Source: Roseateles microcysteis (GTDB taxonomy: Bacteria > Pseudomonadota > Gammaproteobacteria > Burkholderiales > Burkholderiaceae_C). From it: a DNA stretch of 32,000 nt. The DNA is taken from positions 191,707 through 223,706 of the forward strand of contig NZ_JBAJMV010000002.1 of the NCBI RefSeq assembly GCF_036880965.1, written 5' to 3'. The notes under the pieces are model-generated. The model did not search any database. It saw only the letters and a list, made by a program, of their open reading frames with translations, and was not told the DNA's origin. The translations under genes were made by a program, and so were the position numbers. Each line of letters starts with the position of its first letter. The first letter of the stretch is position 1. Below are positions 14,692-29,386 of the stretch, one piece after another.

Positions 14692-15054
14692 TTACATAAT
14701 ACACACACGGTCCGTCACATAACTGTTAGGATTTGCGGCTGCCTCGTTGCTTGGGAAAGCAATTAGGGCGGCCACTACGCAAGCCGCGACCTTTGCAGGC
14801 ATGCCGAAGAGTCGGGCCATGCGCTCACGCTCTGCCGGGTCTTTTTCCTGCGAAACGATGGCGGCTAGCGCTGCTTCTCGCGGGTCCAGGCCGGCGACCT
14901 CGGCCAGTTTGGCGGCGATGTTTGGGCTGAGCTGCTTTTCACCTCGTGCGATGCGGCCGAGAAACGAATGGTTCTCGCTGATGGCATCAGCCAGCTTTCG
15001 CCTGCTGCCGAACTTTTCTTCAGCGGCTGCGATAAGGGTTTCTACGGATGACAT
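14692..15054 (-). CDS. HTH DNA-binding regulator (phage repressor/Cro-like candidate) with a hydrophobic C-terminal segment
   Basis: ATG at 15054 preceded by GGAG with a 6-nt spacer. MSSVETLIAAAEEKFGSRRKLADAISENHSFLGRIARGEKQLSPNIAAKLAEV has an HTH-like pattern. The last five codons and the stop lie inside the 12-bp terminal repeat. Confidence 0.6.
   Translation of the reverse strand: MSSVETLIAAAEEKFGSRRKLADAISENHSFLGRIARGEKQLSPNIAAKLAEVAGLDPREAALAAIVSQEKDPAERERMARLFGMPAKVAACVVAALIAFPSNEAAANPNSYVTDRVCIM
14694..14705 (+). repeat. Direct repeat ACATAATACACA, left copy (candidate dif-like att core)
   Basis: Exact 12-nt match to 23268-23279, in the context tgTTTACATAA-TACACA-cacggtccgtc. ACATAA resembles the inner part of a Xer-binding arm, and TACACA differs from the reverse complement (TATACA) of the E. 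coli dif central hexamer TGTATA by one base. Confidence 0.6.
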
Positions 15055-15098
15055 GTGCACCTCCGGTCGTCATAGTTCGCCACATTGTGTGCACCTCC

Positions 15099-15139: not shown

Positions 15140-15601
15140 TCAACCTGGTGAGGATGCAAACGCCTTCAGCACGTCTGCCGTGTCGGGCACGTTTTTGAAG
15201 CGCAGCACTCGATATCCGGCCTTGGCGAGCAATGTGTCTCGCGCTGCATCGGCGGCCGCCCGGTTCTTGTGTGAGCTGTCGTCCAGCTCAACGACGGCCA
15301 GCACCTCGAAGGCTTTGGAGCACACGACGAAGTCAGCGACTTTTCGGTCGAACGTTGCTCGGGTAGGGCGGTCCTTTGTGTCGAGCAGAGCCGAGAACGC
15401 CACCTGTGCCAAGACCAATGTGTCGGGCATCGCTTGCGAAAGCCTGAAGAACATTGCCTGCTCTCGCTCCGTTAGCGGTCGCTTTGCGAACAGAGTTCCG
15501 GTGGCCTTGCCGCCTGCTTCATTCGTTCGGAGCTTGGCCGTCACGAGGAACGCAAGGGCTGCCACGGCGAGCAGGACGGCTGCAAAAAATATCAGCTTCA
15601 T
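15140..15601 (-). CDS. Membrane-anchored DUF2726/Vsr-like (PD-(D/E)xK fold) nuclease-domain protein
   Basis: N-terminal TM MKLIFFAAVLLAVAALAFLV. Core ADFVVC...AVVELDDSSH...D..RD..L...GYRVLRF matches the DF / E-x-D-x-x-H / VLRF pattern of DUF2726 and DUF559-type endonuclease folds. Confidence 0.65.
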   Translation of the reverse strand: MKLIFFAAVLLAVAALAFLVTAKLRTNEAGGKATGTLFAKRPLTEREQAMFFRLSQAMPDTLVLAQVAFSALLDTKDRPTRATFDRKVADFVVCSKAFEVLAVVELDDSSHKNRAAADAARDTLLAKAGYRVLRFKNVPDTADVLKAFASSPG

Positions 15602-15613
15602 GGTGGGTGGTCA

Positions 15614-15976
15614 GTGATGAGCGCGCAAAGCATACCGGTTAGCGACGCGCCTACCTATAGGGATTGGCTGACTGCACGCCTGGGTGAGCCATTGGACGGT
15701 GGTATCCGCACGGTCTATGTTCAGTTTCGTAAGCGGGGCGCTGTTCTCTGTGGCGTTGCGATTGAGGCCATCCCGGCTCAGCAGGGCCAAGACTGGTTTC
15801 GGATCAAGTCGAGCTTGGGGCTTTGCTCGGCCCCAGCTGCGAACGTACGCATCTGCGGCGGCGAAGGGTGCAGCTGTGCGCCTGACGCGCCAGCCGCGGG
15901 CGCTTGCGCCGCGCCTGGCGCGTCTCGCGCTGTCCCCCTCGGTAACACGGGGACAACAATCGGGGCAGGGGCATGA
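15614..15976 (+). CDS. Hypothetical protein upstream of rep (coding status uncertain)
   Basis: 120-aa ORF whose stop overlaps the rep ATG (ATGA). No recognisable motif. The same interval contains hairpins (about 15811-15838 and 15930-15955) and could instead be an origin or promoter region. Confidence 0.35.
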   Translation: MMSAQSIPVSDAPTYRDWLTARLGEPLDGGIRTVYVQFRKRGAVLCGVAIEAIPAQQGQDWFRIKSSLGLCSAPAANVRICGGEGCSCAPDAPAAGACAAPGASRAVPLGNTGTTIGAGA

Positions 15977-17139
15977 GGACAGAAGCCCGCCCGGTCCTTG
16001 CCGGAAGGCACCTGAAATGGACGCTGGAACAGCGCCAGGCCAAAACGGGTTGGATGGTGCATATCGACTGGCTCCGGTTCACGGTTCCGCTCGATGCCAT
16101 CGTCAAGCGTGAGCCTGCGCTGGTGGACCTGACGGCGCTTGACCTCCTTGAGCAGTCCGCCCGCGATGTGGTTCGCATGGCGGCAGGGGTTGAGTGCGCA
16201 GAGTACACCTCGGCTCACAAGGTTGCGGAAGCAGGGGCGCGGCTGATAGCCAGTTTGCTGGACTGTGGCATTGAGCCAGGCGAAGCGCTGGAAAAGGGCA
16301 TGGACTTCTACTCTGCCCGTGCGCCTCTCGTGTTCGCTGGCGAAACGGTCGGCTTTGTGCTGGCTGGCGGCAAGGCGACGACGCAATCCGGCACGGTTCA
16401 CGTGAACTTGTTCGGCTCTGCAATGCTGCATGTGCCGGTGGATCGCCTTGACGGCTTGCGGGAGTTCCTCGTTGCCAATGACGGCAACATAACGCGGGTT
16501 GACCTGGCGCTTGATGTGTTCGAGGGTCGGTGCATCGATGAGGTTCGCATGGCCTACCTGGCCGGCGATTTCGACGTTCGGGGCAAGCGGCCTGGTCAGC
16601 GTGAGATTGGAAGCTGGACCCTCGGGCACTCGCGCACGTTTGAGGTTGGCTCACGCCAAACCGGCAAGATGATGCGCGCCTATGAAAAGGGCGATGAAAA
16701 GCTCGGCCCGGAAGCGGACGACCCGTGGATTCGGTATGAGGTCGAGTTTCGGGACAACCATCGAATTATCGATCTTGATGTGTTGACCCGTCCGTCTGAC
16801 TTCTTCGCAGGAGCGTATGAGTTCTGCGCGGACATGCTTGAACAGTTACGCGTCAACGCCAACGCCTGCCGGATCCCGACAGTCCCGGAAGTCGCTGACA
16901 AAACAGAAGAGGCCGCAGTGCTTCGCGTTGCGCGCTGGATCAAGCGCACGGCTGCGCCGGCTCTCTCAGTTGCTCTGAGCCTGGGCGGTGATCTGCTCGG
17001 CCAGATTCTTGACCAAGAGGGTCATCGGATGCCTAAGCGCTTGCGCGGCATCAAGACGGACGCTCTCCGGTCTGCATTCGAAAAAGTCGCCGAAGCAATG
17101 GCCCCCGCTTCGTCGCCGTCGTTGAGTGGGGCTGTGTAG
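15973..17139 (+). CDS. Rolling-circle replication initiation protein, Rep_trans (pfam02486-like; RstA/gpII analogue)
   Basis: N-terminal MVHIDWLRFTVP motif characteristic of Rep_trans initiators of filamentous phages and pT181-type plasmids. First gene of the plus-strand phage operon. An alternative start is at 16054. Confidence 0.8.
   Translation: MRTEARPVLAGRHLKWTLEQRQAKTGWMVHIDWLRFTVPLDAIVKREPALVDLTALDLLEQSARDVVRMAAGVECAEYTSAHKVAEAGARLIASLLDCGIEPGEALEKGMDFYSARAPLVFAGETVGFVLAGGKATTQSGTVHVNLFGSAMLHVPVDRLDGLREFLVANDGNITRVDLALDVFEGRCIDEVRMAYLAGDFDVRGKRPGQREIGSWTLGHSRTFEVGSRQTGKMMRAYEKGDEKLGPEADDPWIRYEVEFRDNHRIIDLDVLTRPSDFFAGAYEFCADMLEQLRVNANACRIPTVPEVADKTEEAAVLRVARWIKRTAAPALSVALSLGGDLLGQILDQEGHRMPKRLRGIKTDALRSAFEKVAEAMAPASSPSLSGAV
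16331..16346. repeat. parS-like palindrome copy S1 (tgTTCGC-TG-GCGAAAC, 12/14)
   Basis: Matches GTTTCGC-NN-GCGAAAC at 12 of 14 specified positions. Lies inside rep. Confidence 0.5.
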
Positions 17140-17154
17140 TTTCGCAAGCGAAAC
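17139..17154. repeat. parS-like palindrome copy S2 (GTTTCGC-AA-GCGAAAC, perfect)
   Basis: Perfect 7-bp arms. Overlaps the last base of the rep TAG stop and sits 14 nt before the gV-position ATG. Confidence 0.75.
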
Positions 17155-17167
17155 AAAAGGAATCGAC

Positions 17168-17470
17168 ATGAAGTTTCAATCGCAGATCACCGTCGTCGGC
17201 ATGAAGGCCAACAAAGGCACGATGGAAAACGGCCAGGCGTATGACAGCACCAAGGTTTATGCGCTGACCGACCTTGACAACAGCAAGGGCATGTCCGTTG
17301 GTCAGGCGACCTCGGAATTCAACATCGGCACCAGCGATGAACTGGCGAAATACAAGCATCTGCCGTTCCCGTTCGTCGCCATGGCCGACTGCGAAATCGT
17401 CACCAGTGGCAAGGCCACGAAGACGGTGATTCACGCCATCAAGCCGTTGGAACCGGCAAAGAAGTCCTAA
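17168..17470 (+). CDS. Candidate ssDNA-binding protein (gV position)
   Basis: 100-aa ORF directly after rep, with RBS AAGGAA 6 nt before the ATG at 17168. Assignment rests on position and size only. Confidence 0.5.
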   Translation: MKFQSQITVVGMKANKGTMENGQAYDSTKVYALTDLDNSKGMSVGQATSEFNIGTSDELAKYKHLPFPFVAMADCEIVTSGKATKTVIHAIKPLEPAKKS

Positions 17471-17479
17471 GGCTTCCCC

Positions 17480-17683
17480 ATGGCGCGCTACCTCATTCAG
17501 AGCGGCTACACGTTTGAGTTCCTGCACTGGGACGAACGAACCGGGGGCGTGAATTGGACGCCTAGCCTTGCCGTCGCAATCCGTCACGGGGTCGCGTCCG
17601 ACCTGGAAGAGGTAGATCAGCTTATGCAGGATCACTGCGACCCTGGGCAGGCGTTCTATGTCGATTTGGACATGGAAACCTAG
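17480..17683 (+). CDS. Hypothetical small phage protein
   Basis: 67-aa ORF starting 10 nt after the previous stop, in the same operon. Confidence 0.45.
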   Translation: MARYLIQSGYTFEFLHWDERTGGVNWTPSLAVAIRHGVASDLEEVDQLMQDHCDPGQAFYVDLDMET

Positions 17684-17846
17684 CGTTAGGCAATGGTTCT
17701 TTGCGCCTTGCTGGCTAGTGCACCAGTAAACGCGTTTCTTGTCGCACTGTGAGGGGTTTGATATGTGGCCGTTTGCTCTGTGGTACTCGGAACCGTTCTG
17801 GTGCTTCTTCCCTGCGTTTTTCTGACGCGGTAGGTAGGTCGTCGCC

Positions 17847-18116
17847 ATGATTTGCATCCCACCGCCGCCGTCTGAAGTCATGTGTGAACCTGGGTTCGTT
17901 TGTGACCCTAGCGGCGGGGGTGCGCCTTATCGGCTTGCGGCTGGTGAGACTTGTGCGGGCTTGACCGTGTTAGAGCCTAACGATGTCCCGCCTAACCCGT
18001 TTGTGATGACGACGGAAGATGGCTTGCTTGTTAGCTCTGCCGTGGCTTCCGTGTGGTGCCTGGCGTGGGCGCTCAAGGCTATTCGCTCTGTTCTCAGTGA
18101 CAACTCGTTGGAGTAA
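17847..18116 (+). CDS. Small membrane protein, minor coat (pVII/pIX-like) candidate
   Basis: C-terminal TM plus basic tail LLVSSAVASVWCLAWALKAIRSVL. An internal ATG at 18006 would give a 36-aa product of pVII/pIX size. The stop lies 2 nt before the next gene. Confidence 0.45.
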   Translation: MICIPPPPSEVMCEPGFVCDPSGGGAPYRLAAGETCAGLTVLEPNDVPPNPFVMTTEDGLLVSSAVASVWCLAWALKAIRSVLSDNSLE

Positions 18117-18118
18117 TC

Positions 18119-18424
18119 GTGGCTGATATCACTTTGATTCAAGGGGCTGGTGTGACGGTTGCGGCGGTTGGTGCGGCTGTGTTTGTTGTTCATGTCACGT
18201 TGGCCATTAACCGTTGGCTGCGCGATGTGTTGGGCTACGGATGGGACTACACGGCTACAGATTTGCACGGGGATGCTTCAGGTGAGGGGCCGCCTCCGGA
18301 CGAATGGGGGGATACGGAGCCTGCTGAAGAAGTGGGTGGGAATCCCAATCCAACGTTTGAAGATGACGACGGCAGAACGTGGGTTGTCGATCACAACGGC
18401 GACTGGGTTGTGAAGTCATCGTGA
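18119..18424 (+). CDS. Leaderless coat-protein paralog with an acidic Pro/Gly/Asp-rich C-terminal tail
   Basis: GTG start. Residues 2-38 (ADITLIQGAGVTVAAVGAAVFVVHVTLAINRWLRDVL) align with the mature major coat protein (TDLTAITGAGTEIAAVGGAVFVVMVGIKLVKWIRRAL) at about 19 of 37 identities. Confidence 0.6.
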   Translation: MADITLIQGAGVTVAAVGAAVFVVHVTLAINRWLRDVLGYGWDYTATDLHGDASGEGPPPDEWGDTEPAEEVGGNPNPTFEDDDGRTWVVDHNGDWVVKSS

Positions 18425-18492
18425 ATTTACGAATCGGGCTCGACGCCGATACGGCTCGATTCGTCCATACCTTTTCGGCGCGGAGATTGAAG

Positions 18493-18678
18493 ATGAACAA
18501 GAACCTCGTTCGCGGCCTGGTTGCCGCTGGTGCCCTGGTTGCCGCTGGCGCTTCGCAAGCTGCAACGGACCTGACCGCCATCACTGGCGCGGGTACTGAA
18601 ATCGCGGCTGTGGGTGGCGCGGTGTTCGTTGTGATGGTCGGCATCAAGCTGGTCAAGTGGATCCGCCGCGCCCTGTAA
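18493..18678 (+). CDS. Major coat protein (pVIII-like) precursor
   Basis: 61 aa with RBS GGAGA. Signal peptide MNKNLVRGLVAAGALVAAGASQA, then a short N-terminal segment, a Gly/Ala/Val TM helix and a basic C-terminus KLVKWIRRAL. This is the classic inovirus coat architecture. Confidence 0.85.
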   Translation: MNKNLVRGLVAAGALVAAGASQAATDLTAITGAGTEIAAVGGAVFVVMVGIKLVKWIRRAL

Positions 18679-18691
18679 GCGCAGCTGGTCC

Positions 18692-18709
18692 GGCCCTTCG
18701 GGGCCTTTT
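18692..18709 (+). terminator. Short hairpin terminator after the coat gene
   Basis: GGCCC-TTCG-GGGCC followed by TTTT, 14 nt after the coat stop codon. Inoviruses commonly attenuate transcription after gVIII. Confidence 0.5.
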
Positions 18710-18711
18710 CC

Positions 18712-18727
18712 AATTCGCATGCGAAAC
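18712..18727. repeat. parS-like palindrome copy S3 (aaTTCGC-AT-GCGAAAC, 12/14)
   Basis: Contains the 12-bp perfect palindrome TTCGCATGCGAA. Lies between the coat terminator and the pIII-like start. Confidence 0.6.
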
Positions 18728-18790
18728 GTGCGCATTGCAAAAGAGGCAAGTCATGGGAATTTGGGTATGTGTCGCGCTGCTGGGGGGTCT

Positions 18791-20248
18791 ATGGATCGTG
18801 CTTCGCGATTAGTCGCTTGTGTCATGGTGTGGGCGCTTCTAGCGTTTGCGCTGGTGGCGCTTTGCTCGCCGGCCTATGCCATAGGGCTTGCTTCGCGTGA
18901 AACCGTGACGACGTATGTAGGTAAGTGCAGTTCGTCGAGCGTTGCCGACGTAACCTCTTCTTCGTCTGCCGGTGCGACGGCCGCGTGTCTTGCTAATTGG
19001 ACTTGGACGGGCTCCGTCTACATTAACGGCTGCACGCGGGCTGTCACGCATGTGGCCTTCATTCATCACGTCGACGCCCTTAGCACGCCTGGAAATTTCA
19101 GGCATTTCATTTACGCCAATCGGACGTATGCCACGCCTGGGACGTGCCAGCCGCAGCCGGCAGACGTGGCGCAGTTTGGGCATGTGGACGTGCTAGCGAC
19201 GACGGCAACGAGTTGCGTTTCGGGCTCGTCACTTATCGCCGGGACCACGGACAAATGTCAGTGCGATCTTGGGCAGAAGCCTGACCCCGCAAACCCCGGT
19301 AAGTGCGTGCCTTACACATGCGCGGCGCCTGGCACGTACTCGGCTGTCACTCAGCCGGACCAACTCGTGCCAAATGCTGGCGATCTGCAATGCGATCAGG
19401 GCTGCGAGAACAAGCCGTCAAGCTGGAAGGCTGGCGCGGACGGCAAGATATGGGCTACGTGGCCGTTTGTGTCTACCGGGAAGACCTGCGGCGGCGCTAA
19501 GTCGGCAACGGCACCGGCTTACGACACGGGGGATTTGAATAATCTCAATCCTGCGCCCGTTGCGTGTCCGGCGAATCAATGTCCGGGCTCAGTTAACGGC
19601 ACAAATGTTTGTGTGGCCTGTTCTGGAACCAAGGTCGAAGGGCCTAGCACGGCTGCGAGTGGCACCACGCCGGCCAATGATGGCTCGGGGTCGATCAAGT
19701 CCGAGAACAAAACAACCGAGTGCACGGGCACCAGTTGCACGACGACGACCACGTACAAAGACGCGAGTGGAAACACAGTCGGCACCAAGACGGAAACCAA
19801 GGATCAGAAGTCCTTCTGTCAGGAGAATCCGACTCTGAGCATCTGCAAAGAATCCGCTTTTGGCGGTAATTGTGCGGGTGGCTTCACCTGTAACGGGGAC
19901 GGCGTGCAATGCGCGCTCGCTCGCGAAGTGCACCGGAACAACTGCGAATGGGCGAAGCAAGACCCGGGCATGAAAGGCGCATGGGATAGCGCCGTCGCAA
20001 ATGCCGGCCAGGCTCAACCCCCAGGGCATCCAGGCGCAGAAGGTGAAGTTACGTCTATGTCGTTCGCGTCTGCCATTGATCAAACAAACCGCCTGGGTGG
20101 CGGCTGTCCCTCGGATGTGTCTATTTCCTACGCTGGCAGAAGCTGGGTAATTCCATGGTCCCAGCACTGCGACAAGCTGCAACTAATCGGTAATTTGATG
20201 GTGTCCGTCTGCATGCTTGCGGCTGCCTTCATCGTCTTTAGGAACTGA
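18791..20248 (+). CDS. Minor coat / host-attachment protein (pIII-like)
   Basis: ATG at 18791 with a G-rich RBS. Signal peptide MDRASRLVACVMVWALLAFALVALCSPAYA, Cys-rich domains separated by Thr/Ser/Gly linkers, and a C-terminal membrane anchor LIGNLMVSVCMLAAAFIVFRN. Sits between the coat and pVI-like genes. Confidence 0.7.
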   Translation: MDRASRLVACVMVWALLAFALVALCSPAYAIGLASRETVTTYVGKCSSSSVADVTSSSSAGATAACLANWTWTGSVYINGCTRAVTHVAFIHHVDALSTPGNFRHFIYANRTYATPGTCQPQPADVAQFGHVDVLATTATSCVSGSSLIAGTTDKCQCDLGQKPDPANPGKCVPYTCAAPGTYSAVTQPDQLVPNAGDLQCDQGCENKPSSWKAGADGKIWATWPFVSTGKTCGGAKSATAPAYDTGDLNNLNPAPVACPANQCPGSVNGTNVCVACSGTKVEGPSTAASGTTPANDGSGSIKSENKTTECTGTSCTTTTTYKDASGNTVGTKTETKDQKSFCQENPTLSICKESAFGGNCAGGFTCNGDGVQCALAREVHRNNCEWAKQDPGMKGAWDSAVANAGQAQPPGHPGAEGEVTSMSFASAIDQTNRLGGGCPSDVSISYAGRSWVIPWSQHCDKLQLIGNLMVSVCMLAAAFIVFRN

Positions 20249-20249
20249 T

Positions 20250-20552
20250 ATGCCAGCACTACTTATCGCGGCCCTTTGGGGTGGTCTGATTCAGGTTCTA
20301 GGTACGCTCGTCGGTAAGGTGCTGGTGTCCCTTGGCATCGGTTATGCCGTTTTCTCGGGGGTCGATACCTCGATCACCTGGGCACGCGATTACGTCATTT
20401 CGCAGATTTCGGCGCAGCACGCCCAGACCGTGGCAGCCGCAAGCGCCTGTAAGGTCGGGGTGTGCATCTCGATTCTTACTAGCGCGCTAGTGGCACGGCT
20501 GACCATCAACGGCCTAACGGGTGGCAGCCTGAAGCGCTTCAAGGTGAAATAG
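20250..20552 (+). CDS. pVI-like minor coat protein (DUF2523-like)
   Basis: 100-aa multi-TM protein MPALLIAALWGGLIQVLGTLVGKVLVSLGIGYAVFSG, starting 1 nt after the pIII-like stop. Size, hydrophobicity and position match the DUF2523 proteins that precede zot in inoviruses. Confidence 0.65.
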   Translation: MPALLIAALWGGLIQVLGTLVGKVLVSLGIGYAVFSGVDTSITWARDYVISQISAQHAQTVAAASACKVGVCISILTSALVARLTINGLTGGSLKRFKVK

Positions 20553-20561
20553 GGCGGGGCG

Positions 20562-20577
20562 GTTTCGCTTGCGAAAC
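20562..20577. repeat. parS-like palindrome copy S4 (GTTTCGC-TT-GCGAAAC, perfect)
   Basis: Perfect arms, in the 24-nt gap between the convergent pVI-like and zot stops. Overlaps the last base of the zot TAG stop. It is the reverse complement of S2, with identity extending over 19 nt (GTAGTTTCGCAAGCGAAAC). Confidence 0.75.
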
Positions 20578-21566
20578 TACTCGACCTTTCGCTCGTTGTG
20601 TGTCGGCACGGCGTGCACTGCCTGCTGCTGCCAGGCGATGAAGAACCCGCCATCAGCAATGCGCCTACACAGGTCCTCCACCATTTCTAGCGCCGTTCCC
20701 TGCTGGCTGTAGCACCTGCACTTGTCTTTGTTGGCAATGCAGGCCGCAGGGTAGGGCGCCTGCGTCGGTTTCGTCACTTCGTCGTAAATTGGCGCGGTGT
20801 GGGGCAGGCCGTCAACGCGGGGCGTGTGGGCCTGCGCATATTGAACCGGCGTTAGTGTCTCGCGCTGGGCTGGCCGCTGGTTATTGCCTCCCATGGATTG
20901 GCGTTGGTCGGCAGTTATGCCTGCCTGTGCATCCATCCGCGCTTGTACGTTTTCTGGCTTCATCCGGTGGTACGCAAACCAGACAAGTGCGGCTAGAACT
21001 ACAGGCAGGGCTAGCAGGATCCAAACGCGCATGGGAATGCGCCGTTTCACCGTGTGAAGCTCTGCCGACTGGTACAGGTCAAAAACGTCTTTCGGATACT
21101 TCCACTCATGGCGGATCGATCCATCGCGGCTCGATGCGACGTTCTCTTTTACGCCGTTCGGGAATTCATGGATCGTCGCTCTGTGCGTGCCGAACTTGCG
21201 CACTACGTGAAAATGCCGGTCCACCAGACGCCGGACAAAGCTGTCCATCAGCATCGGGTTTTGCGTGATGACGACGAAATCCAGCCCCAGGTGGCGATGG
21301 GTTGCTAGGTTGTTGATATGTGGCGGCGGCTCGCCTCGGCCACGAACCGGAAACGGTTTCTGGCACTCGTCGATGACCATGATTGCGCCAGCTGGGAGCT
21401 TTTCCCAATCCTCGGCCGGCCACTCTTGCCATCCGGGGATATTCAGGCCGCGAATGCTGTTGTGAAAGACCGGCCGTCCTTCCTTGATGGCCGAGTCTTT
21501 CCACCGGGCGAGCGCATACAAGGTCTTGCCGTGGCCTGGCAGGCCGGTGATGAGCGTAATCGGCAT
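20577..21566 (-). CDS. zot: Zot / pI-like phage assembly P-loop NTPase
   Basis: MPITLITGLPGHGKTLYAL Walker A, VIDECQ Walker B, central TM VWILLALPVVLAALVWFAY and a Cys-containing C-terminal domain. The ATG at 21566 is 1 nt after the parB-like stop. It is on the opposite strand to all other morphogenesis genes. Confidence 0.85.
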   Translation of the reverse strand: MPITLITGLPGHGKTLYALARWKDSAIKEGRPVFHNSIRGLNIPGWQEWPAEDWEKLPAGAIMVIDECQKPFPVRGRGEPPPHINNLATHRHLGLDFVVITQNPMLMDSFVRRLVDRHFHVVRKFGTHRATIHEFPNGVKENVASSRDGSIRHEWKYPKDVFDLYQSAELHTVKRRIPMRVWILLALPVVLAALVWFAYHRMKPENVQARMDAQAGITADQRQSMGGNNQRPAQRETLTPVQYAQAHTPRVDGLPHTAPIYDEVTKPTQAPYPAACIANKDKCRCYSQQGTALEMVEDLCRRIADGGFFIAWQQQAVHAVPTHNERKVE

Positions 21567-21567
21567 G

Positions 21568-22407
21568 TCAGACCTCGGCGCCGTCGATCTGTTCGCGGAT
21601 CCAGTCGTGTCCGCCGAGTGCTTGCAGCTTGCGGAACTGTTCCGGCGATAGGTCAAGCTGCACCTTATTGAACAATTCGGTCTGTTCTTCGCTTTCGTCG
21701 GTGCCTTCGTCGTCTGCCTGTTCTGCGGCGGCTTCGTCCACCGGATCCGCCTTCAGTTTCGCAAGCGAAGCGCGAACGTCTGCGCGGGCCAGCTGCTCAT
21801 TCATGGCGCGGGTGAGGAGGGCGTTAAGCACTCGCGGCGCGTCTTCGTTCTTGCTCTTGGCAATCTGATTGAGCGTATGCAGAATTTCGACATCGTTCAC
21901 GGCATCGCTGTCGATCAGCGTGCGGACGCGGCTGTCAAAACTCGGGCTTGTCAATGCAAGGTGTTTGCTCACCCATGCCGGCGACTTGTTCACGCGCTTC
22001 GCGACCTCGGCGGGCTTCTTGTAAACGTTGAACAGCTTGCGCACGCCGTCTGCGGTGTCGGCCAGGTTCAAGCCTTCGCGTTGCAGGTTCTCGGCCAGCT
22101 GCACCTCAGTGATGGCGACGGGCTCCTGGTCGACGATCATTGCCGGGATGCGCTCCAGCTTTGCCAGGCGAGCGGCTGCGGTGCGGCGGTGACCATACAA
22201 GACGATGAAGCCTTCATCGGCTTCGGGATCGCGGCGGATCACGATAGGCTGCAAGACGCCATATTGCTGGATCGATTCGGCCAGCTGGCGCAGGCTCTCT
22301 TTGTCGAACCCGTTTCGCGTGCGAATCTGTTCGTGGGTGGTGATGAGGGAAAGCGGAACCAGCTTGACGGCGGCGAGGTCGGCGACTGCATGAGTAGCGG
22401 TGTTCAT
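21568..22407 (-). CDS. ParB/KorB-family protein (N-terminal ParB/Srx domain plus HTH); no cognate ParA
   Basis: ATG at 22407 with AGGAGA 7 nt upstream. Motifs LQPIVIR, YGHRRTAAARLAKLERIPAMIV (the GxRR arginine patch) and HTH PAEVAKRVNKSPAWVSKHLALT. Acidic C-terminal tail. Confidence 0.8.
   Translation of the reverse strand: MNTATHAVADLAAVKLVPLSLITTHEQIRTRNGFDKESLRQLAESIQQYGVLQPIVIRRDPEADEGFIVLYGHRRTAAARLAKLERIPAMIVDQEPVAITEVQLAENLQREGLNLADTADGVRKLFNVYKKPAEVAKRVNKSPAWVSKHLALTSPSFDSRVRTLIDSDAVNDVEILHTLNQIAKSKNEDAPRVLNALLTRAMNEQLARADVRASLAKLKADPVDEAAAEQADDEGTDESEEQTELFNKVQLDLSPEQFRKLQALGGHDWIREQIDGAEV
21756..21771. repeat. parS-like palindrome copy S5 (GTTTCGC-AA-GCGAAgC, 13/14)
   Basis: One mismatch. 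Lies inside the 3' part of the parB-like gene. Confidence 0.6.
22312..22327. repeat. parS-like palindrome copy S6 (GTTTCGC-GT-GCGAAtC, 13/14)
   Basis: One mismatch. Lies inside the 5' part of the parB-like gene. Confidence 0.6.
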
Positions 22408-22545
22408 GTGCGAATCTCCTGAAGTGAGGCGCCCGGGATGGGATACCTTCAGAAGATGCTTCCTCGCTCCCGCCTTGGGGCGGGCGGGGGGTGGGGGCGT
22501 CGCGCTAACGTACAAAAGGGCGCAGCTGCCGCTACACCCGATTAA

Positions 22546-23267: not shown

Positions 23268-23279
23268 ACATAATACACA
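23268..23279 (+). repeat. Direct repeat ACATAATACACA, right copy (junction between the two prophages)
   Basis: Exact copy of 14694-14705, in the context aGTTGACATAA-TACACA-ttgtcgtgaaa. Lies in the 158-nt divergent gap between the two paralogous HTH genes. Confidence 0.6.
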
Positions 23280-23313
23280 TTGTCGTGAAAAGGTAGGCAG
23301 TGTATGGTCTTCC

Positions 23314-23781
23314 ATGTTAGCGGCTACTACGAAACTCCCAAGTCAGGCAATAAGCAAAAAACCAAGTTGCCCCAGGGAGTCCGAATTGATAGCCAGCTTA
23401 AACCGCCAATCCTTGCCCGATCTGGTCACACTTCTCGCCGATCTTGGGAACCCGCCGCCACGGTGCATCGCCCGTGCGCTAGGCGTTACAGAACGAACCG
23501 CCAGGCGCTGGATTCAGGCCGAGCATGCGCCACGCGCCGCCATGCTGGCCTTGTTCTTCTGCTCGACCTGGGGGCTTTCCAGCGTCAACGCGCAGGCCGT
23601 GAACGAAGCACAGCACGCTGCGGCCATGGCCGCAGCGCTGGCCCGCGAGGTTGCGCAGTTGCGCCGCGAGCTGGCTCGGCTCGCGGCAATTGGTGAGTTC
23701 GGTTCGGCCAACGCTCCCGCGTTCAATGCCGACACGCCCGCGCAGCTCTTGCGGCGCAGGCCGATGCTCAACGGCGCTTGA
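23314..23781 (+). CDS. HTH protein, candidate XafT-like (HTH + DUF3653-like) factor, second-element copy
   Basis: RCIARALGVTERTARRWIQ HTH, then APRAAMLALFFCSTWG and a coiled REVAQLRRELARLAAIGEFG segment. Paralog of 22706-23155. An alternative TTG start at 23386 (GGAG 6 nt upstream) would match the paralog's length. Confidence 0.55.
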   Translation: MLAATTKLPSQAISKKPSCPRESELIASLNRQSLPDLVTLLADLGNPPPRCIARALGVTERTARRWIQAEHAPRAAMLALFFCSTWGLSSVNAQAVNEAQHAAAMAAALAREVAQLRRELARLAAIGEFGSANAPAFNADTPAQLLRRRPMLNGA

Positions 23782-23837
23782 AGCGGCCGTTCTTTGCTCG
23801 TGCTGGGGTCTTGCTCTTGCGCTTCTTTGCCATGGCT

Positions 23838-23996
23838 TCAGCCTTTCAGGTTGTCGATTCGTGCGTGTGCTGCGCGGGCGCTCTCCAGCGCATGCGATGC
23901 CCGTTCATTGAGCCGCGCCAGGTCGGCCCGAATGCCGGCATAGACGCTGGCAGCGAGCGCCGCCTGTGGCAGCAGTTGCAGCAGCCAGTCAGGCAT
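23838..23996 (-). CDS. Small protein (52 aa), hydrophobic N-terminus plus coiled segment; lysis-module candidate
   Basis: MPDWLLQLLPQAALAASVYAGIRADLARLNERASHALESARAAHARIDNLKG. Its ATG overlaps the upstream stop (TGATG). Below the ORF-track length cutoff. Confidence 0.4.
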   Translation of the reverse strand: MPDWLLQLLPQAALAASVYAGIRADLARLNERASHALESARAAHARIDNLKG

Positions 23997-24163
23997 CAGC
24001 TCTGCGCCTTCTCGGGCGCCAGGACGGCCACCAGGCCGGCCACGCCGGCAATGACCTGGCCGGCCAGGTCAACGGTGCCAGGCGGCAAACCGAAGATCAG
24101 GCCGAGGGCCGAGATACCGGCCCAGGTGCTGGGCTCGCGCAGGCGCTTCAAAAATTGCTTCAT
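23996..24163 (-). CDS. Small membrane protein (55 aa)
   Basis: MKQFLKRLREPSTWAGISALGLIFGLPPGTVDLAGQVIAGVAGLVAVLAPEKAQS. Two hydrophobic segments. Starts 3 nt after the upstream stop. Confidence 0.45.
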   Translation of the reverse strand: MKQFLKRLREPSTWAGISALGLIFGLPPGTVDLAGQVIAGVAGLVAVLAPEKAQS

Positions 24164-24166
24164 GGT

Positions 24167-24454
24167 TCAGCTCCAGAGGTAGGAAAGAAAGTCCTTTGCC
24201 GGACAGGCAAAGGATGCGTCCCAGGTGCGGCCCTCGGCCTTCGCCTTCTCGCACTCGGTGAGATTGGTTTCAGGGATGCCAACGGCCTTTCCGATGGCGA
24301 TGGCGCCACCTGATACGGTGCCGTCCACCAGGTCAACGGCCGCGCCGCCAATGGCCGCGCCGGCTCCCTTGAAGCCGCCCTTGTAGGCCACCCAGGCGAG
24401 CGCCAGGACGACTGCGCCGCCGGCTGCCAGGTAGACGGGTGGAATGCGCGCCAT
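24167..24454 (-). CDS. Small membrane protein (95 aa)
   Basis: N-terminal TM PPVYLAAGGAVVLALAWVAY and a Gly/Ala-rich segment. Starts 2 nt after the upstream stop. Confidence 0.55.
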   Translation of the reverse strand: MARIPPVYLAAGGAVVLALAWVAYKGGFKGAGAAIGGAAVDLVDGTVSGGAIAIGKAVGIPETNLTECEKAKAEGRTWDASFACPAKDFLSYLWS

Positions 24455-24456
24455 GG

Positions 24457-24639
24457 TCAGAAATAGACCTTCGTCGGGTCCCAGTTGGGGTTGTCGGACG
24501 GGTTGACCCGGCCGCCGCCAGCGCGCACGCCGGCCGCCGTTTTGGCGGTGCCGCCCGATGCCTTGACGATCATCCAGACAGCCACGGCGGCCAGGCCCAG
24601 GACGATGAGTTCTGTTTTCTTCATGGTCACGCCTTTCAT
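24457..24639 (-). CDS. Small membrane protein (60 aa; alternative start at 24624), holin-like candidate
   Basis: MKGVTMKKTELIVLGLAAVAVWMIVKASGG. The ATG at 24639 overlaps the SLT stop (ATGA), and a second ATG at 24624 has an AAAGG RBS. The track ORF extension to 24780 overlaps the SLT gene. Confidence 0.5.
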   Translation of the reverse strand: MKGVTMKKTELIVLGLAAVAVWMIVKASGGTAKTAAGVRAGGGRVNPSDNPNWDPTKVYF

Positions 24640-25235
24640 GCGTAGTCGGTGCCGGCCGTGCTGTTCACGTCCGCGAGGATTTGCCCGAAGTAGTTGCGGG
24701 TTTCGCGTGGCGCCGCCTCCAGGCCCTTGCGCGACACATTGCCCATTCCCCAGTTGTAGGCGGCCAGCGCTTCCGACCAATTGCCGAAGCGGTTGAACAG
24801 GCTTCGCAGGTAGCGCGCAGCGGCCGGGATTGCCTGGGCCGGGTTCAGCGGGTCGATGCCCATATCCCGCGCCGTGGCGGGCATGAACTGGGCGATTCCC
24901 AGCGCGCCGGCAGGGCTGCGCGTGGCGCCGCTGATGATGTCTTCTCTGTACCGGCTCTCTTGGTACAGCAGGCGCTCGAGCATCAGCGCCGGCAGGCCGT
25001 TGTCCTGCTCGGCCTGCGCGATCAAGCCTGCGTAGCGTTCAGGCGCCCGCCAGAGCTGCAAAAGGTTCACCGTCTTGCTCACAATCGTGTCTCCCACATC
25101 TGCGGCCGACTCAAGCCAGCCGCCACCATCTGCCGGCGCCGCATCCGGCGCCGCCTCTTCTTGTCGCTGCCGGTACATGACCCACGCGCCCACGGCCAGC
25201 AGGCCGGCAGCACCGATCAGTACAGAGCCGCGCAC
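24636..25235 (-). CDS. Membrane-anchored lytic transglycosylase (SLT domain)
   Basis: GTG start and an N-terminal TM. Catalytic and structural motifs LLYQESRY, GALGIAQFMPATA and AAYNWGMGNV. Confidence 0.85.
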   Translation of the reverse strand: MRGSVLIGAAGLLAVGAWVMYRQRQEEAAPDAAPADGGGWLESAADVGDTIVSKTVNLLQLWRAPERYAGLIAQAEQDNGLPALMLERLLYQESRYREDIISGATRSPAGALGIAQFMPATARDMGIDPLNPAQAIPAAARYLRSLFNRFGNWSEALAAYNWGMGNVSRKGLEAAPRETRNYFGQILADVNSTAGTDYA

Positions 25236-25238
25236 CCG

Positions 25239-25574
25239 TCAGCCCCCTCGCCGCGTGCGCGCAGCCTTGGCGGCCGTTTCCTTGCCCTCCAGATAGGCCA
25301 CGTCGGCGCCGACCTTCTTTGCGATGGCGATAAACACCTCGCGAGCCGTGCGGCTCATGCCGGTGTCTCGGTCGATCTGTTCTAGCTCGACGCTCGCCGC
25401 CTCGGCATCGCTGGGAGGAACCGCAGCGACTGCAACGAAGGCCGCACCGTCCCAGCGCTTGCCGATAGGTGCCGCGCCTGGTGCGAGTTCGATCATGGTC
25501 GGGCTGTCCACCTTGCCGCCCAATTCAGACACGCCAACGCAGATGCCGGCGCCGTTGATCTGTGCGTATCGCAT
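25239..25574 (-). CDS. Hypothetical protein (111 aa)
   Basis: ORF coupled to both neighbours (1-nt and 3-nt junctions). No recognisable motif. Confidence 0.5.
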   Translation of the reverse strand: MRYAQINGAGICVGVSELGGKVDSPTMIELAPGAAPIGKRWDGAAFVAVAAVPPSDAEAASVELEQIDRDTGMSRTAREVFIAIAKKVGADVAYLEGKETAAKAARTRRGG

Positions 25575-25915
25575 CAGTTGCTCTCCTGGATCTGCCAGCG
25601 CACAACCATTCGCTTGTACGTGTTCAAGGTGCCCGAGAAAATCCGCATCGTCGTGGCGTTCACAAAGTAGGCCTTCGGCAGGCTGGCGCTTGTGTTGAAT
25701 CGGCCCACGCGGCCCGCTGTGTTTGCTGTCGTTGTGGCTGACGCATCGTCACCCACCACACCATTCAAAAGAATCACCGCCTTGGCCGTATTGACGGCCG
25801 CGACTGTCACGTCGATGTAATGGCCCTCAGGTTCAGTTCCTGCGGTCAACCCCGCCTGGTCAACGTCCACCAGGCCAGATTGCACCTTGAAGCCGCTGCT
25901 TGCACCAATGCCCAT
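25574..25915 (-). CDS. Beta-rich hypothetical structural protein (113 aa), vertex/spike candidate
   Basis: Alternating hydrophobic pattern typical of beta-sandwich proteins. Lies within the structural operon. Confidence 0.5.
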   Translation of the reverse strand: MGIGASSGFKVQSGLVDVDQAGLTAGTEPEGHYIDVTVAAVNTAKAVILLNGVVGDDASATTTANTAGRVGRFNTSASLPKAYFVNATTMRIFSGTLNTYKRMVVRWQIQESN

Positions 25916-25918
25916 GCG

Positions 25919-26500
25919 TCAGCCCTCCAGCACGGCAACGGCCGTCGTTGCGCCGCTGCCGATCACATTGATTTGCCCCGTAGGCGCTCGGCCCTGGATC
26001 TCCAGGGATTGACCGGGCGGGAGCTTCACGCCGTTCGCCACGGTCGCGGCCGTGCCGTCCAGGCGCAGATAGATGGTCACGCCCGCATCGTTGTTCTGGA
26101 TCAGCAGATAGCGGCGGTTCGCATTGGCCGCCAGCAGCTGGCCGGATGCGCCGGTCACGTTGCCCAGCGTCTGACTGAAGCCGCCGTTCTCGTTTTTCAC
26201 GGTCACGGTGCCGGTGATGTTCACGGCGCCAACTGCGCGGTCGTAGCTGACCTGGCCGCCCATGCGCGTGACGATGGAGACCACGCCGCCCGCCACGCTG
26301 GTGATTCGCACGCGATCAAACTTCAGCGACTCGCTGTACCCGGCGCCGACGTTTTGCACGTCGGCGACTTCGCGGCCCTGAAAGTAGAACTTGAGCGCCA
26401 CATCCTCGGCCGCGCTGGACAGGACCCGCAGGAAGTCACCGGCCTCGTTTATTTCCTTGGCGCCAGCGGCGCCGGCCCCCATGTTCTCGTTGAAGTACAT
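25919..26500 (-). CDS. Beta-rich hypothetical structural protein (193 aa), spike/receptor-binding candidate
   Basis: Gly/Val/Thr-rich beta-strand pattern (VNITGTVTVKNENGG, YLLIQNNDAGVTIYLRLDG). Lies within the structural operon. Confidence 0.5.
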   Translation of the reverse strand: MYFNENMGAGAAGAKEINEAGDFLRVLSSAAEDVALKFYFQGREVADVQNVGAGYSESLKFDRVRITSVAGGVVSIVTRMGGQVSYDRAVGAVNITGTVTVKNENGGFSQTLGNVTGASGQLLAANANRRYLLIQNNDAGVTIYLRLDGTAATVANGVKLPPGQSLEIQGRAPTGQINVIGSGATTAVAVLEG

Positions 26501-26509
26501 CGCGTGCCT

Positions 26510-27268
26510 TTACTTCTTCCAGGCCATGAGCGCGAAGGCCGCAGCCGCCGCCAGGCCCAGGATGGTGATGGTCTTGTTATCGAGGCTGCCGCTCTTCTCG
26601 GTGGTCGCGCTGCGGTAAGCCTCGGTGGTCAAGGCGCCGACGTTCTCAACGGCCTTTATGTTGCTGTCGAACATGGATTTACCCAGCGATAGCAACTGCG
26701 AGAAGCCGGCTCCGACCGTGGCGTTTGACTTCTCTGCAAACGCAAAGGCTTTGTCCTGCGATTCGCGCTGGGCGTCAGCCAGTTCGCTCGCCGACGAACG
26801 AGCGAACCCGAGCGCGTCTTTGTTGGCCGTGGCAGCAAAGCCGAAGGCTTCAGAGCCGAAGCTAAACGCCCGGTCCGTGGTCTTGGTGTTGGCCGTGATC
26901 GCGGTTTCCATGGCGCGCAGCGCGCCAGGGTCGAACTGGTTGACCGATCGGTTGCTGTTGTCGGTGTACTTGACCGACGAATCCGAAGACGACGACGACG
27001 AGCGGTTGCTGCTGTCGTTAACCGTCAAGTCCATCATGGTTGACAGGTTGCGGCTGTCGTTCACGTTGACCGATTGGTCCCGCGTGTCGGTGATGGCAAT
27101 GGAGCTGCCGCCCGTGGCGCCCAGGCTTCCATCCCCCAGCACCAGGCGGTTATCCAGCGCCGTGCTGGTGTTTTGGGTGGATGACGAAGAGTTCGTCCCG
27201 CCCGAGTCGCCTCCGAAGCTCAGCCGGAAGGCCAGCGCCGGTATGAAGAATTTGAACAGTGCTTTCAT
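26510..27268 (-). CDS. Ser/Asn/Thr-rich membrane-associated protein (252 aa)
   Basis: N-terminal signal-like MKALFKFFIPALAFRLSFGG, low-complexity SSNRSSSSSSDSS region and a C-terminal TM ITILGLAAAAAFALMAWKK. ATGA overlap with the upstream gene. Confidence 0.55.
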   Translation of the reverse strand: MKALFKFFIPALAFRLSFGGDSGGTNSSSSTQNTSTALDNRLVLGDGSLGATGGSSIAITDTRDQSVNVNDSRNLSTMMDLTVNDSSNRSSSSSSDSSVKYTDNSNRSVNQFDPGALRAMETAITANTKTTDRAFSFGSEAFGFAATANKDALGFARSSASELADAQRESQDKAFAFAEKSNATVGAGFSQLLSLGKSMFDSNIKAVENVGALTTEAYRSATTEKSGSLDNKTITILGLAAAAAFALMAWKK

Positions 27269-27660
27269 GCGATCTGCTTTTCCAGAATGAACCCACGGCC
27301 GACGCTGCCGGCGATGCTGTATCCCAGGGCTAACGCCTTATGAACGAGCCCGCGCCTCATGGTCTGAAACGCAACGCTTGCGCAGCCCACGGCCCGCGCT
27401 TGCGCCTCAATGACGGACAAGCCCGCCTCGGTCATGCCCTGGCCGGTGCCGGCTGCCGCGTGTATCCAGCAACGGCCCGCCGCCCTGGCGCTCAGCGTGT
27501 AGATGCACGCGCCGGAATCTGTCTCGACCTTGAAGGACTCACCCGCGAGCGCCGCACTCATTGGCGTGGCCCTGCCCTGCGGGTCCAGGCCTGCGCAAGC
27601 CTTGAAGGCTTCCGCCGCCTGTTCCACGCTGGCTCTGGTCAGCGCCGCACGATGGCCCAT
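27265..27660 (-). CDS. Hypothetical protein with a possible GNAT-like acetyltransferase core
   Basis: CWIHAAAGTGQGMTEAGLSVIEAQARAVGCASVAFQTMRRGLVHKALALGYS resembles GNAT motif A/B (a Q/R-x-x-G-x-G/A-like loop, then helix-strand, then a GY/GF ending). Weak, by eye only. Confidence 0.4.
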   Translation of the reverse strand: MGHRAALTRASVEQAAEAFKACAGLDPQGRATPMSAALAGESFKVETDSGACIYTLSARAAGRCWIHAAAGTGQGMTEAGLSVIEAQARAVGCASVAFQTMRRGLVHKALALGYSIAGSVGRGFILEKQIA

Positions 27661-27950
27661 ACCGCCACCAGAGCCAGGCCCATCAAGGCCATGGTTTGCC
27701 AGTCGCCGCCCAGGCCCAGGCCCGAGGCCATGCCGTCCGCGCTGATCGGGTTGCTTTCGGTCTTGGTCTTTGTCGACGTGCTGTCGATGGTCCCGCCGCC
27801 GAAATTGACATTCCAGCCCGAGTGATCGGCCTCGAAGTCGTAGGTTCCCGTCAGGTGCGATTCGGAAGGCCCGGTAGGTGGCGTCGTGAGCGCCTTGCCG
27901 AGCACTTGGGTGCCGCCGTTGATGAGGGCGCCCATGGTCATCGGGTCCAT
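27639..27950 (-). CDS. Small virion-membrane protein candidate (103 aa)
   Basis: RBS AAGGA 5 nt upstream of the ATG. C-terminal TM WQTMALMGLALVAVWAIVRR. Confidence 0.55.
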   Translation of the reverse strand: MDPMTMGALINGGTQVLGKALTTPPTGPSESHLTGTYDFEADHSGWNVNFGGGTIDSTSTKTKTESNPISADGMASGLGLGGDWQTMALMGLALVAVWAIVRR

Positions 27951-27959
27951 GGGGGTCCT

Positions 27960-28229
27960 TTATCGCTTGGCGAGCAGCAGCACAAGCACAAGGCCCGCGC
28001 CGCCAATCAACAGCATCGTTTTCGGGTTCATGCCCGCCACGGTGCCCTGAGGCACTCCATTGCGCTGACCTTCCGCGTAATAGCTGCCCGTCTGGCCCAG
28101 GGCCTTGAGGCGCATTTGCTCAGTCTCGTAGGGCTGGACCCACTTTGCCTCGACCGCCTTGCTGATGGCGTTCCCGGCAATGTTCTGGACCCAATCGGAC
28201 CACGAGCCGGAGGTGTTTTCTCCGTCCAT
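27960..28229 (-). CDS. Small virion-membrane protein candidate (89 aa)
   Basis: C-terminal TM MLLIGGAGLVLVLLLAKR. Immediately downstream of the capsid candidate. Confidence 0.55.
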   Translation of the reverse strand: MDGENTSGSWSDWVQNIAGNAISKAVEAKWVQPYETEQMRLKALGQTGSYYAEGQRNGVPQGTVAGMNPKTMLLIGGAGLVLVLLLAKR

Positions 28230-28241
28230 GTGGTCCGTCCC

Positions 28242-29072: not shown

Positions 29073-29086
29073 GCTTCAGCCCTCAC

Positions 29087-29266: not shown

Positions 29267-29320
29267 ACAGGGTTGGCCGCATCGGTTGCCCCGGTGCTGG
29301 CGTCTTGCAAGGCCTCATTC

Positions 29321-29353
29321 AAAGGAAAACGAGAACCGGGCACGAGGCCCGGT
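29321..29353 (-). terminator. Rho-independent terminator after the ATPase gene (boundary between early and structural units)
   Basis: The minus strand reads ACCGGGC-CUCGU-GCCCGGU followed by UCUCGUUUUCCUUU, 34 nt downstream of the ATPase stop. Confidence 0.6.
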
Positions 29354-29386
29354 ATCTCTTCCCGTTACCGTATGGCTCGGGCGCCG

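Follow-up and report, generated by a model that had tools for sequence, protein, structure and literature searches.

Nucleotides 191,707 to 223,706 (forward strand) of contig NZ_JBAJMV010000002.1 of Roseateles microcysteis (assembly GCF_036880965.1), hereinafter the window (the whole stretch of 32,000 nucleotides that was analysed), include a prophage of a filamentous phage (inovirus) that carries a gene for a ParB/KorB-like protein of 279 amino acids (aa) together with six copies of a 16-bp palindrome. The sequence of this protein places it in the ParB CTPase family and gives it a DNA-binding domain of the KorB type; the palindrome is its predicted cognate site. The inovirus hallmarks are present: Pfam detects Zot and Rep_trans in the window, and Phage_Coat_B and DUF2523 in syntenic homologues. 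The prophage is bounded by two copies of a 12-bp direct repeat, ACATAATACACA, starting at 14694 and 23268, which enclose 8,574 bp, in agreement with the 8.6 kb given for the element in the first-pass annotation. The context of the repeat resembles what we take to be the XerD arm and central region of dif; this dif-like context suggests XerCD-mediated integration. The phage encodes no integrase. The genes and boundaries of the prophage are:

14692-15060, minus strand: HTH_3 repressor-like gene
14694..14705, plus strand: putative attL, left copy of ACATAATACACA, in a dif-like context
15140-15601, minus strand: DUF2726 gene (DUF2726/DUF559 endonuclease-like), between the repressor and the replication module
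15614-15976, plus strand: orf120
15973-17139, plus strand: rep, Rep_trans replication initiator, RstA-like (Pfam Rep_trans, 73.3 bits)
17168-17470, plus strand: gV-like gene
between gV and coat, plus strand: small open reading frames (ORFs)
18494-18678, plus strand: coat gene
18719 or 18791 to 20248, plus strand: pIII-like gene
18753-18812, plus strand: hydrophobic mini-ORF of 19 codons (MGIWVCVALLGGLWIVLRD), between the coat terminator and pIII
20251-20552, plus strand: pVI
20577-21566, minus strand: zot, the pI assembly ATPase (Pfam Zot, 82.6 bits)
21568-22407, minus strand: parB/korB-like gene (hereinafter parB), 279 aa
22706-23173, minus strand: gene for a 155-aa helix-turn-helix (HTH) protein, 5' of parB, with weak HTH matches
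23268..23279, plus strand: putative attR, right copy of ACATAATACACA, in a dif-like context

A search of the window with the pattern GTTTCGCNNGCGAAAC (GTTTCGC-NN-GCGAAAC), allowing at most 2 mismatches, yields exactly the six palindromes that the first-pass annotation reported, with 2 mismatches at 16331, none at 17139, 2 at 18712, none at 20562 and one each at 21756 and 22312. The 100 shuffled versions of the window gave 0.28 matches on average and at most 2, with six reached in none of the 100, and the six palindromes are thus far above chance; the core TTCGC-NN-GCGAA is common to all six sites. The positions originally described proved correct as well, with three sites at gene junctions (rep/gV, coat/pIII and pVI/zot) and two inside parB, as did the confinement to the inovirus: at the same threshold, all six sites are within the 8.6-kb prophage and none is found in the 23 kb of non-inovirus DNA of the window. 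At 3 mismatches, three further matches appear, two of them in the phage (14841 and 15427) and one outside it (28539). Of the 16-mer as originally drawn, the arms stand and the free two-base centre does not: the consensus of the family, derived from 100 sites in 23 loci, is GTTTCGCATGCGAAAC, with a preference for AT in the centre. The sites and one weak candidate are listed below, with distances in nucleotides (nt):

S1, 16331..16346: TGTTCGCTGGCGAAAC, within rep, 358 nt in
S2, 17139..17154: GTTTCGCAAGCGAAAC, perfect; overlaps the final base of the rep stop codon, 13 nt 5' of the gV-like start
S3, 18712..18727: AATTCGCATGCGAAAC, with the coat-gene terminator just 5' and the pIII module 3'; 26 nt before the 19-codon mini-ORF
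S4, 20562..20577: GTTTCGCTTGCGAAAC, perfect; between the convergent pVI and zot stops, at the zot 3' end
S5, 21756..21771: GTTTCGCAAGCGAAGC, within parB, 636 nt in; encodes S-L-A-K-L
S6, 22312..22327: GTTTCGCGTGCGAATC, within parB, 80 nt in; encodes I-R-T-R-N
weak candidate seventh site, 14841..14856: CTTTTTCCTGCGAAAC, 204 nt into the HTH_3 repressor-like gene

The candidate at 14841 differs from the strict pattern at 3 positions and from GTTTCKCNNGMGAAAC at 2, and the homologous repressor-like genes of two related phages (L001 and L002; L numbers are our handles for the loci compared) have a site 198 nt from the start.

The protein encoded by parB exceeds the cut-offs of the Pfam ParB_N model (PF02195; 63.9 bits, cut-off 26.3), the Pfam model of the KorB DNA-binding domain (PF08535; 34.4 bits, cut-off 22.3) and the NCBIfam parB_part model (TIGR00180; 114.8 bits, cut-off 58.45); the chromosomal HTH_ParB model of Pfam gives no score, and the NCBIfam Noc score, 89 bits, is far under the cut-off of 315. 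Alignments of 11 and of 50 homologues show invariant G72, R74 and R75 of the GxRR box and E106, N107 and R110 of the ENLQRE box (Q109 of the latter is nearly invariant among the 50), and, in the recognition helix KSxAWVSKHL, invariant K141, S142, W145, S147 and K148; V146 and H149 are invariant among the 11 homologues and nearly so among the 50. A profile search against the Protein Data Bank (PDB) matches Spo0J, ParB, Noc and KorB, with these motifs aligned to their GERR and ENLQRE. The AlphaFold2 model (predicted local distance difference test score, pLDDT, 87) has RK2 KorB (8qa9) as its best Foldseek match, with a template modelling (TM) score of 0.72 and a root-mean-square deviation of 3.8 Å; against the KorB operator-binding domain (1r71), the TM score is 0.77-0.80. 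The domain order comprises an N-terminal ParB_N domain predicted to bind cytidine triphosphate (CTP), a KorB-type HTH, an acidic disordered linker and a short two-helix C-terminal unit, which is confidently predicted at residues 255-276 of the monomer model and is a candidate for the dimerisation domain of the family. Only ~13 residues precede the first strand in this model, and the LGALLRG-type N-terminal peptide with which ParA-linked homologues contact ParA is missing from the phage protein. The initial description of a ParB-family protein with a GxRR arginine patch and an HTH, encoded without ParA in the same element, is thus borne out on both counts: among the 10 ORFs of the window phage that were scanned with Pfam (small ones were left out), none is a ParA/CbiA/AAA_31 gene, and no ParA-type gene was called on seven ParB-seeded inovirus genomes. 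The closest database protein is annotated from Roseateles microcysteis.

A single-sequence search of IMG/VR with this ParB produced no match; profile searches detected homologues 36-62% identical to it, on 7.6-9.5-kb inovirus contigs that also carry Rep_trans, a gV-like gene, a coat gene, a pIII-like gene, DUF2523/pVI and Zot. Several of these contigs are circular, as shown by terminal overlaps of 20-30 nt, and one sequence is represented by two circularly permuted versions, L002 and L003. The palindrome recurs in the related inovirus genomes: in an unbiased count of short palindromes, TTCGC-N2-GCGAA ranks first in L001, L002, L004, L007, L009, L015, L017 and L097, each of which has 4-7 copies. 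L008 has the variant TTCTC-N2-GAGAA, L011 mixes both half-sites, and the form in L019 and L020 is 15 bp long, with a centre of 1 bp. Where such prophages reside in bacterial genomes, nearly all sites are at most ~8 kb from parB, and a few weak, 2-mismatch matches are found in the flanks.

The site positions are syntenic while the identity between the Rep proteins is only 46-72%. The site near the parB 5' end is 68-95 nt inside the gene or, in L008, 4 nt before its start; a site is located at or just past the zot 3' end in all seven genomes compared, and in L007, L008 and L009 this site is also 0-20 nt after the parB operon. The rep/gV junction is occupied in L001, L002, L004 and L009 as well, rep-internal sites are present in L002, L007, L008 and L009, sites near the coat gene occur in relatives (S3 is kept with its flanks in L001), and S5 has a homologue in L002, at 4287. 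In the window phage, a single nucleotide separates the parB stop from the zot start (TGAcATG), and the two genes are thus probably one operon, transcribed convergently with the structural genes; among the morphogenesis genes, zot alone is inverted, and L001 and L002 share this parB-zot arrangement. The usual orientation of zot, with parB convergent to it, is found in L004, L005, L007, L008 and L009; the perfect site S4 moves along with the zot 3' end. Some relatives encode a small serine recombinase (resolvase) beside parB; a site precedes its start by 17-35 nt in L007 and L009, and L008 has one 33 nt into the gene. In these phages, a gene for integration or excision may be under ParB control.

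The link between the sites and parB was assessed in 79 IMG/VR inovirus contigs found via Rep alone. All 6 contigs that encode ParB have 4-7 sites, and 70 of the 73 ParB-less contigs have 0-1; at least 3 sites are present in the remaining 3 of the 73 (Fisher P = 3e-7 for this Rep-seeded set). These three exceptions (L014, L016 and L022) are fragments that end where parB is located in relatives, and another contig, L021, has a truncated parB at its end. L013, a relative (54% Rep identity) whose circular genome is complete, lacks parB and has no site even at 3 mismatches; L012 has none at that threshold either. Within the Rep_trans clade, the sites vanish without parB, which implies that their reader is encoded in cis there. 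Profiling of all ORF families identified ParB as the only gene family that tracks the sites. The other candidate readers were rejected: the HTH_3 repressor is found in 24 contigs with sites and in 56 without; the presence of the Rep, gV, pIII or Zot families does not follow that of the sites; and orf120 is present in L013, which has no sites, and absent from L019 and L020, which have them.

The coding sequence of parB itself provides another line of evidence. The S6 position is occupied in 10 of the 11 parB genes whose product has the RTRN motif, where it encodes I/V-R-T-R-N. The second arginine of this intragenic site is specified by the rare codon CGA in 10 of 11 genes, against a background of 12% (P = 7e-9), and the isoleucine by ATT in 8 of 8, while the codons of the neighbouring glycine, aspartate and glutamine vary freely. 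The retention of CGA and ATT amid variable synonymous positions shows, at the level of sequence comparison, that the parB-internal site is under selection as DNA.

The same 16-mer accompanies ParB outside phages. In a metagenome scan for the exact consensus, it was found 0-20 nt 3' of parB in classical parA-parB operons, both on contigs of 25-29% GC (L142, L168, L197 and L202) and on contigs of 60-71% GC (L156, L183, L203 and L226). The Nitrosospira plasmid pNRS527-2 (L256, NZ_AP024517.1), which is of conjugative type, with genes for type IV secretion and a relaxase and with an ssb-parA-parB-TrfB-like-repA region, has 6 dispersed copies of GTTTCGCATGCGAAAC, against 0.62 expected (positions 16394, 22306, 24660, 28825, 33951 and 37107), including ones upstream of mobC and of the ssb-parA-parB operon. 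Its ParB is ~30% identical to the phage protein, with the recognition helix KSKSWVSKHL in place of the phage KSPAWVSKHL. The Acinetobacter plasmid pALWED2.2 (L257), with a TrfB-like/ParA/ParB region and Trb genes, has 4 copies of the variant TTTTCGTTAACGAAAA, one of them 2 nt after parB. The layout of the phage sites had been likened to that of KorB operators on plasmids, and the identical 16-mer dispersed on pNRS527-2, beside a TrfB(KorA)-like/ParA/ParB region, agrees with this; by these sequence criteria, the phage system belongs to the KorB-like class of plasmid ParBs.

An element of another kind, L137 (1-12916), encodes a protein-primed family-B DNA polymerase and an orphan ParB_N/KorB protein of 266 aa and has 15 palindromes in 12.9 kb; no virion hallmark genes were detected in it with Pfam or PHROGs. 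Its relative L216 has 9 palindromes in 6.1 kb.

The palindrome is also found in elements without ParB. Among 2.9 million IMG/VR contigs, 34 contain the exact 16-mer; almost all of these are inovirus-sized, and 8 of the 34 encode ParB. ParB is lacking, by every search made, in four related inoviruses, namely L105 and L132, each a complete circle (terminal repeats, 125-127 nt), L110 and L114. Their replication protein is of the Phage_CRI/G2P type, their gV belongs to a different family, and Zot is the one protein that they have in common with the window phage. A hidden ParB was sought in L132 with hidden Markov models with filters off, phmmer and hhalign, and none was found. The four genomes are 92-95% identical, and their sites differ only at a tolerated G/T position or at the outermost base; this limitation of the variation to tolerated positions suggests that the sites are maintained. 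A further ParB-less carrier, L108, is a Rep_1/Zot/integrase element in which four perfect copies of GTTTCGCATGCGAAAC within 1.2 kb (L108:1053-2211) separate small cassettes (PIN toxin, ParD-like antitoxin); it, too, has no protein but Zot in common with the window phage. In such carriers, to judge by gene content, the reader must act in trans, being either the ParB of a resident plasmid or chromid or a host protein. For the Rep_trans clade, this leaves untouched the pairing in cis of the phage ParB with the palindrome that the first-pass annotation put forward; exclusivity to ParB-encoding phages does not hold, given that complete ParB-less inoviruses carry copies. We regard the site as a signal shared among mobile elements.

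With moderate confidence, we favour the explanation that the phage protein is an orphan KorB-like silencer and autoregulator of the double-stranded form of the phage, with the palindrome as its loading and operator site; one clade of betaproteobacterial Rep_trans inoviruses would have acquired a KorB-type ParB without the ParA that goes with it. On either the replicative form or the prophage, each of the six sites would be recognised by ParB dimers; after binding CTP, these would close into clamps that slide along the DNA or accumulate near the sites. As there is one site per ~1.5 kb, the clamps could reach most of the phage genome of 8.6 kb. The clamps would repress or block transcription at their own parB-zot operon (through the site 80 nt into parB), which would amount to autoregulation and would limit the assembly ATPase as well, and also at the rep-to-gV and coat-to-pIII junctions and at the convergent pVI/zot junction. 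The net effect would be a throttled switch from quiet carriage to single-strand and virion production. In this scheme, we infer the physical binding, the CTP dependence, the spreading and the direction of the regulatory effect. The dispersal of the operators, with inclusion of the own operon, fits this scheme: two of the six sites are in parB and one is at the end of the parB-zot operon.

Several observations weigh against a cis-acting silencer of this kind. The ParB-encoding inovirus L005 has the intragenic copy only; the site variants (TTCTC half-site, 1-bp spacer) come without matching changes in the recognition helix of ParB, and a covariation of the two, looked for in the alignments, was not seen; the scan for promoters and terminators was at chance level, its promoter part being uninformative for a GC-rich phage; and, elsewhere, the 16-mer is the centromere-type site of parAB operons. 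The ParB-less L105, L132, L110 and L114 have 4-7 sites, placed where genes meet and immediately 5' of ribosome-binding sites, so that the site can function without a cis-encoded ParB. Such elements raise the alternative of a reader that acts mainly in trans, be it the KorB/ParB of a resident plasmid or chromid or a protein of the host; the phage ParB would then be a mimic through which the phage could enter or override that network and might, for instance, sense a conjugative plasmid or manipulate it. The conserved copies in these four genomes and in L108, the use of the identical operator by pNRS527-2 and the near restriction of the exact 16-mer in IMG/VR to inovirus-sized contigs are all compatible with reading in trans, but the Rep_trans clade loses the sites when parB is absent, the site held by a rare codon inside parB ties the gene to the site, no resident plasmid is known for the host, and the 23 kb of flanking chromosome are devoid of sites; we consider this alternative rather improbable.

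Alternatively, the module might be a partition or maintenance device, in which a centromere-like ParB complex keeps the replicative form in dividing cells, either alone, through condensation or tethering, or with a ParA borrowed from the host or from a resident replicon. The identical 16-mer directly follows parB in classical parA-parB operons, some relatives likewise have one site right after parB, which is the usual place of a plasmid centromere, the circular 7.6-9.4-kb contigs of related phages suggest an episomal life, and dispersed centromere sites are known from the phage-plasmid N15. However, ParA is not found on any inovirus genome examined, the multicopy replicative forms of rolling-circle replication have less need of partition, and the window copy is integrated at a dif-like site. 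With neither ParA nor the peptide that contacts it, and with sites placed as operators would be, at operon junctions and, in relatives, 17-35 nt before the resolvase start, regulation is favoured, and partition appears unlikely, though less so than reading in trans. It is very improbable that the palindromes work as nucleic-acid structures, that is, as hairpins in mRNA or single-stranded DNA with a role in termination, processing, stability, packaging or priming. Several sites are indeed at gene junctions just 5' of ribosome-binding sites, and some in the L110 group are followed by T runs. The predicted energies, however, are weak (-4.4 to -7.7 kcal/mol, with most z-scores not significant), which led us to discard hairpins as the principal explanation; at two sites, the predicted fold does not run through the palindrome, and none of the 6 palindromes is scored as a terminator (the call at 16336-16353 overlaps S1 with a different pairing). 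Furthermore, sequence rather than pairing alone is kept across unrelated elements, imperfect copies lose the symmetry of one arm without compensation, Rfam finds nothing in the phage region, and the sites track parB. A resemblance of the half-site to the XerC arm of dif (TTCGCAT, as we take it to be) was also considered and, by inference, rejected; the arms are 2 bp apart, too close for a Xer core, and many ParB-less inoviruses lack the motif.

Among the known systems, the silencer that we favour most closely resembles KorB of the IncP-1 plasmid RK2, which likewise combines a ParB-family CTPase with a KorB-type DNA-binding domain (and is, as 8qa9, the best structural match), recognises a short palindromic operator of the form TTT-x-GC...GC-x-AAA, and has its operators dispersed over the element with one at its own operon. 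The RK2 OB operator is TTTAGCGGCTAAA; the RK2 protein binds IncC through an N-terminal peptide, undergoes a clamp cycle that depends on CTP, and has 12 sites (PMC11790492). In the IncU plasmid RA3, KorB is both the centromere binder and a global repressor (PMC7414963). The phage differs from RK2 and RA3 in the lack of an IncC/ParA partner, and its KorA partner is only a candidate. In comparison with RK2 KorB, the phage protein lacks the long disordered N-terminal peptide that contacts ParA, and its C-terminal domain is the short two-helix unit; the phage site has another inner base and a 2-bp centre; and the setting is an 8.6-kb single-stranded DNA filamentous phage with ~1 site per 1.5 kb, against 12 sites in 60 kb. 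The control region of pNRS527-2 shares with the phage the identical GTTTCGCATGCGAAAC, in 6 dispersed copies, and a near-identical recognition helix, but the proteins are only ~30% identical, and the plasmid has ParA and a TrfB/KorA-like protein beside ParB; no experimental study of it was found.

The resemblance to the chromosomal ParB-parS systems (parS is TGTTTCACGTGAAACA) extends to the N-terminal CTP-binding fold with its motifs and to the outer arms GTTTC...GAAAC of the site, whereas the DNA-binding domain of the phage protein scores with KorB and not with HTH_ParB, ParA is missing, the inner half-site differs and the centre is 2 bp longer; canonical parS is not found in the window apart from one 3-mismatch match of chance quality. 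The spo0J gene of B. subtilis contains a binding site inside the gene itself, as does the phage parB. Scattered palindromic SopB sites, which influence phage gene expression as well, are present on the genome of N15, but this is a tailed double-stranded DNA phage that persists as a low-copy linear plasmid with a full SopA/SopB system. Noc and VirB, too, are ParB CTPases that act without ParA at dispersed specific sites, and Noc is among the profile and fold matches of the phage protein; Noc, however, has its role on the chromosome and a helix for membrane targeting, VirB is an antagonist of silencing by H-NS, and neither is phage-borne.

Filamentous phages are usually described with one repressor and a fixed set of ~10 genes. 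The view that ParB is outside the usual inovirus gene set is supported by the absence of a full-length homologue of the phage ParB from the deposited phages of INPHARED and by a literature search that found no paper linking ParB or KorB to inoviruses; the site sequence, when looked up in the literature, led to nothing but an unrelated paper on NRF1, and megablast of the prophage against deposited phages gave no match. The protein family and its mode of action are already known. What is new is the setting in a filamentous single-stranded DNA phage without ParA, with a very high density of sites and a coupling to zot, as well as the occurrence of one operator in both plasmids and phages. A whole uncultured clade appears to have added a plasmid-type ParB/KorB clamp, with loading sites spread over a genome of only ~8 kb, which makes for a very small natural system in which a CTP-dependent ParB clamp would silence or organise DNA without ParA. 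Such a clamp may add a control step between chronic infection and quiescence, here wired directly to the gene of the assembly ATPase. Given that the identical operator is found in plasmids, in ParB-less inoviruses and in another small element, cross-talk between mobile elements becomes testable. A bolder idea, which we hold to be improbable, is that the 16-bp operator constitutes a regulatory code shared by conjugative plasmids and co-resident small phages. If so, a plasmid KorB could silence or sense inoviruses with or without a ParB of their own, and the element with the protein-primed polymerase, and a KorB mimic of a phage could reprogramme plasmid genes, such as those for type IV secretion or pili, which phages often use as receptors.

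Among the remaining genes of the prophage, the mini-ORF MGIWVCVALLGGLWIVLRD is kept at the nucleotide level in L001, L002 and L004, and its product may be a small minor coat protein. The DUF2726 gene is not present in the related phages compared, PADLOC finds no defence-system match for it, and it looks like an accessory gene. The 155-aa HTH protein encoded 5' of parB, from which it is separated by a terminator-like hairpin (22518-22539), has homologues in the same position in L004 (49% identity) and L002 (41%) and is missing from most relatives according to gene-family profiling; no match to the TrfB/KorA family was detected among the phage proteins with Pfam or NCBIfam. It is possible, going by this position, that the protein is an accessory partner of ParB.

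A second gene for a 155-aa HTH protein (23314-23781, plus strand), whose product is 43% identical to the first, is divergent from it, with the junction between the inovirus and a PM2-like prophage between the two. This corticovirus-type prophage occupies 23300-32000, directly beside the dif-like repeat that ends the inovirus. It encodes a lytic transglycosylase (24636-25235, minus strand), a double jelly-roll coat protein with P2_N and P2_C domains (28242-29072, minus strand) and a Phage_GPA replication protein (30942-31961, minus strand). On the other side, the chromosomal flank contains a tandem glycine riboswitch at 6393-6616 (minus strand), with two aptamers of 54.7 and 56.6 bits.

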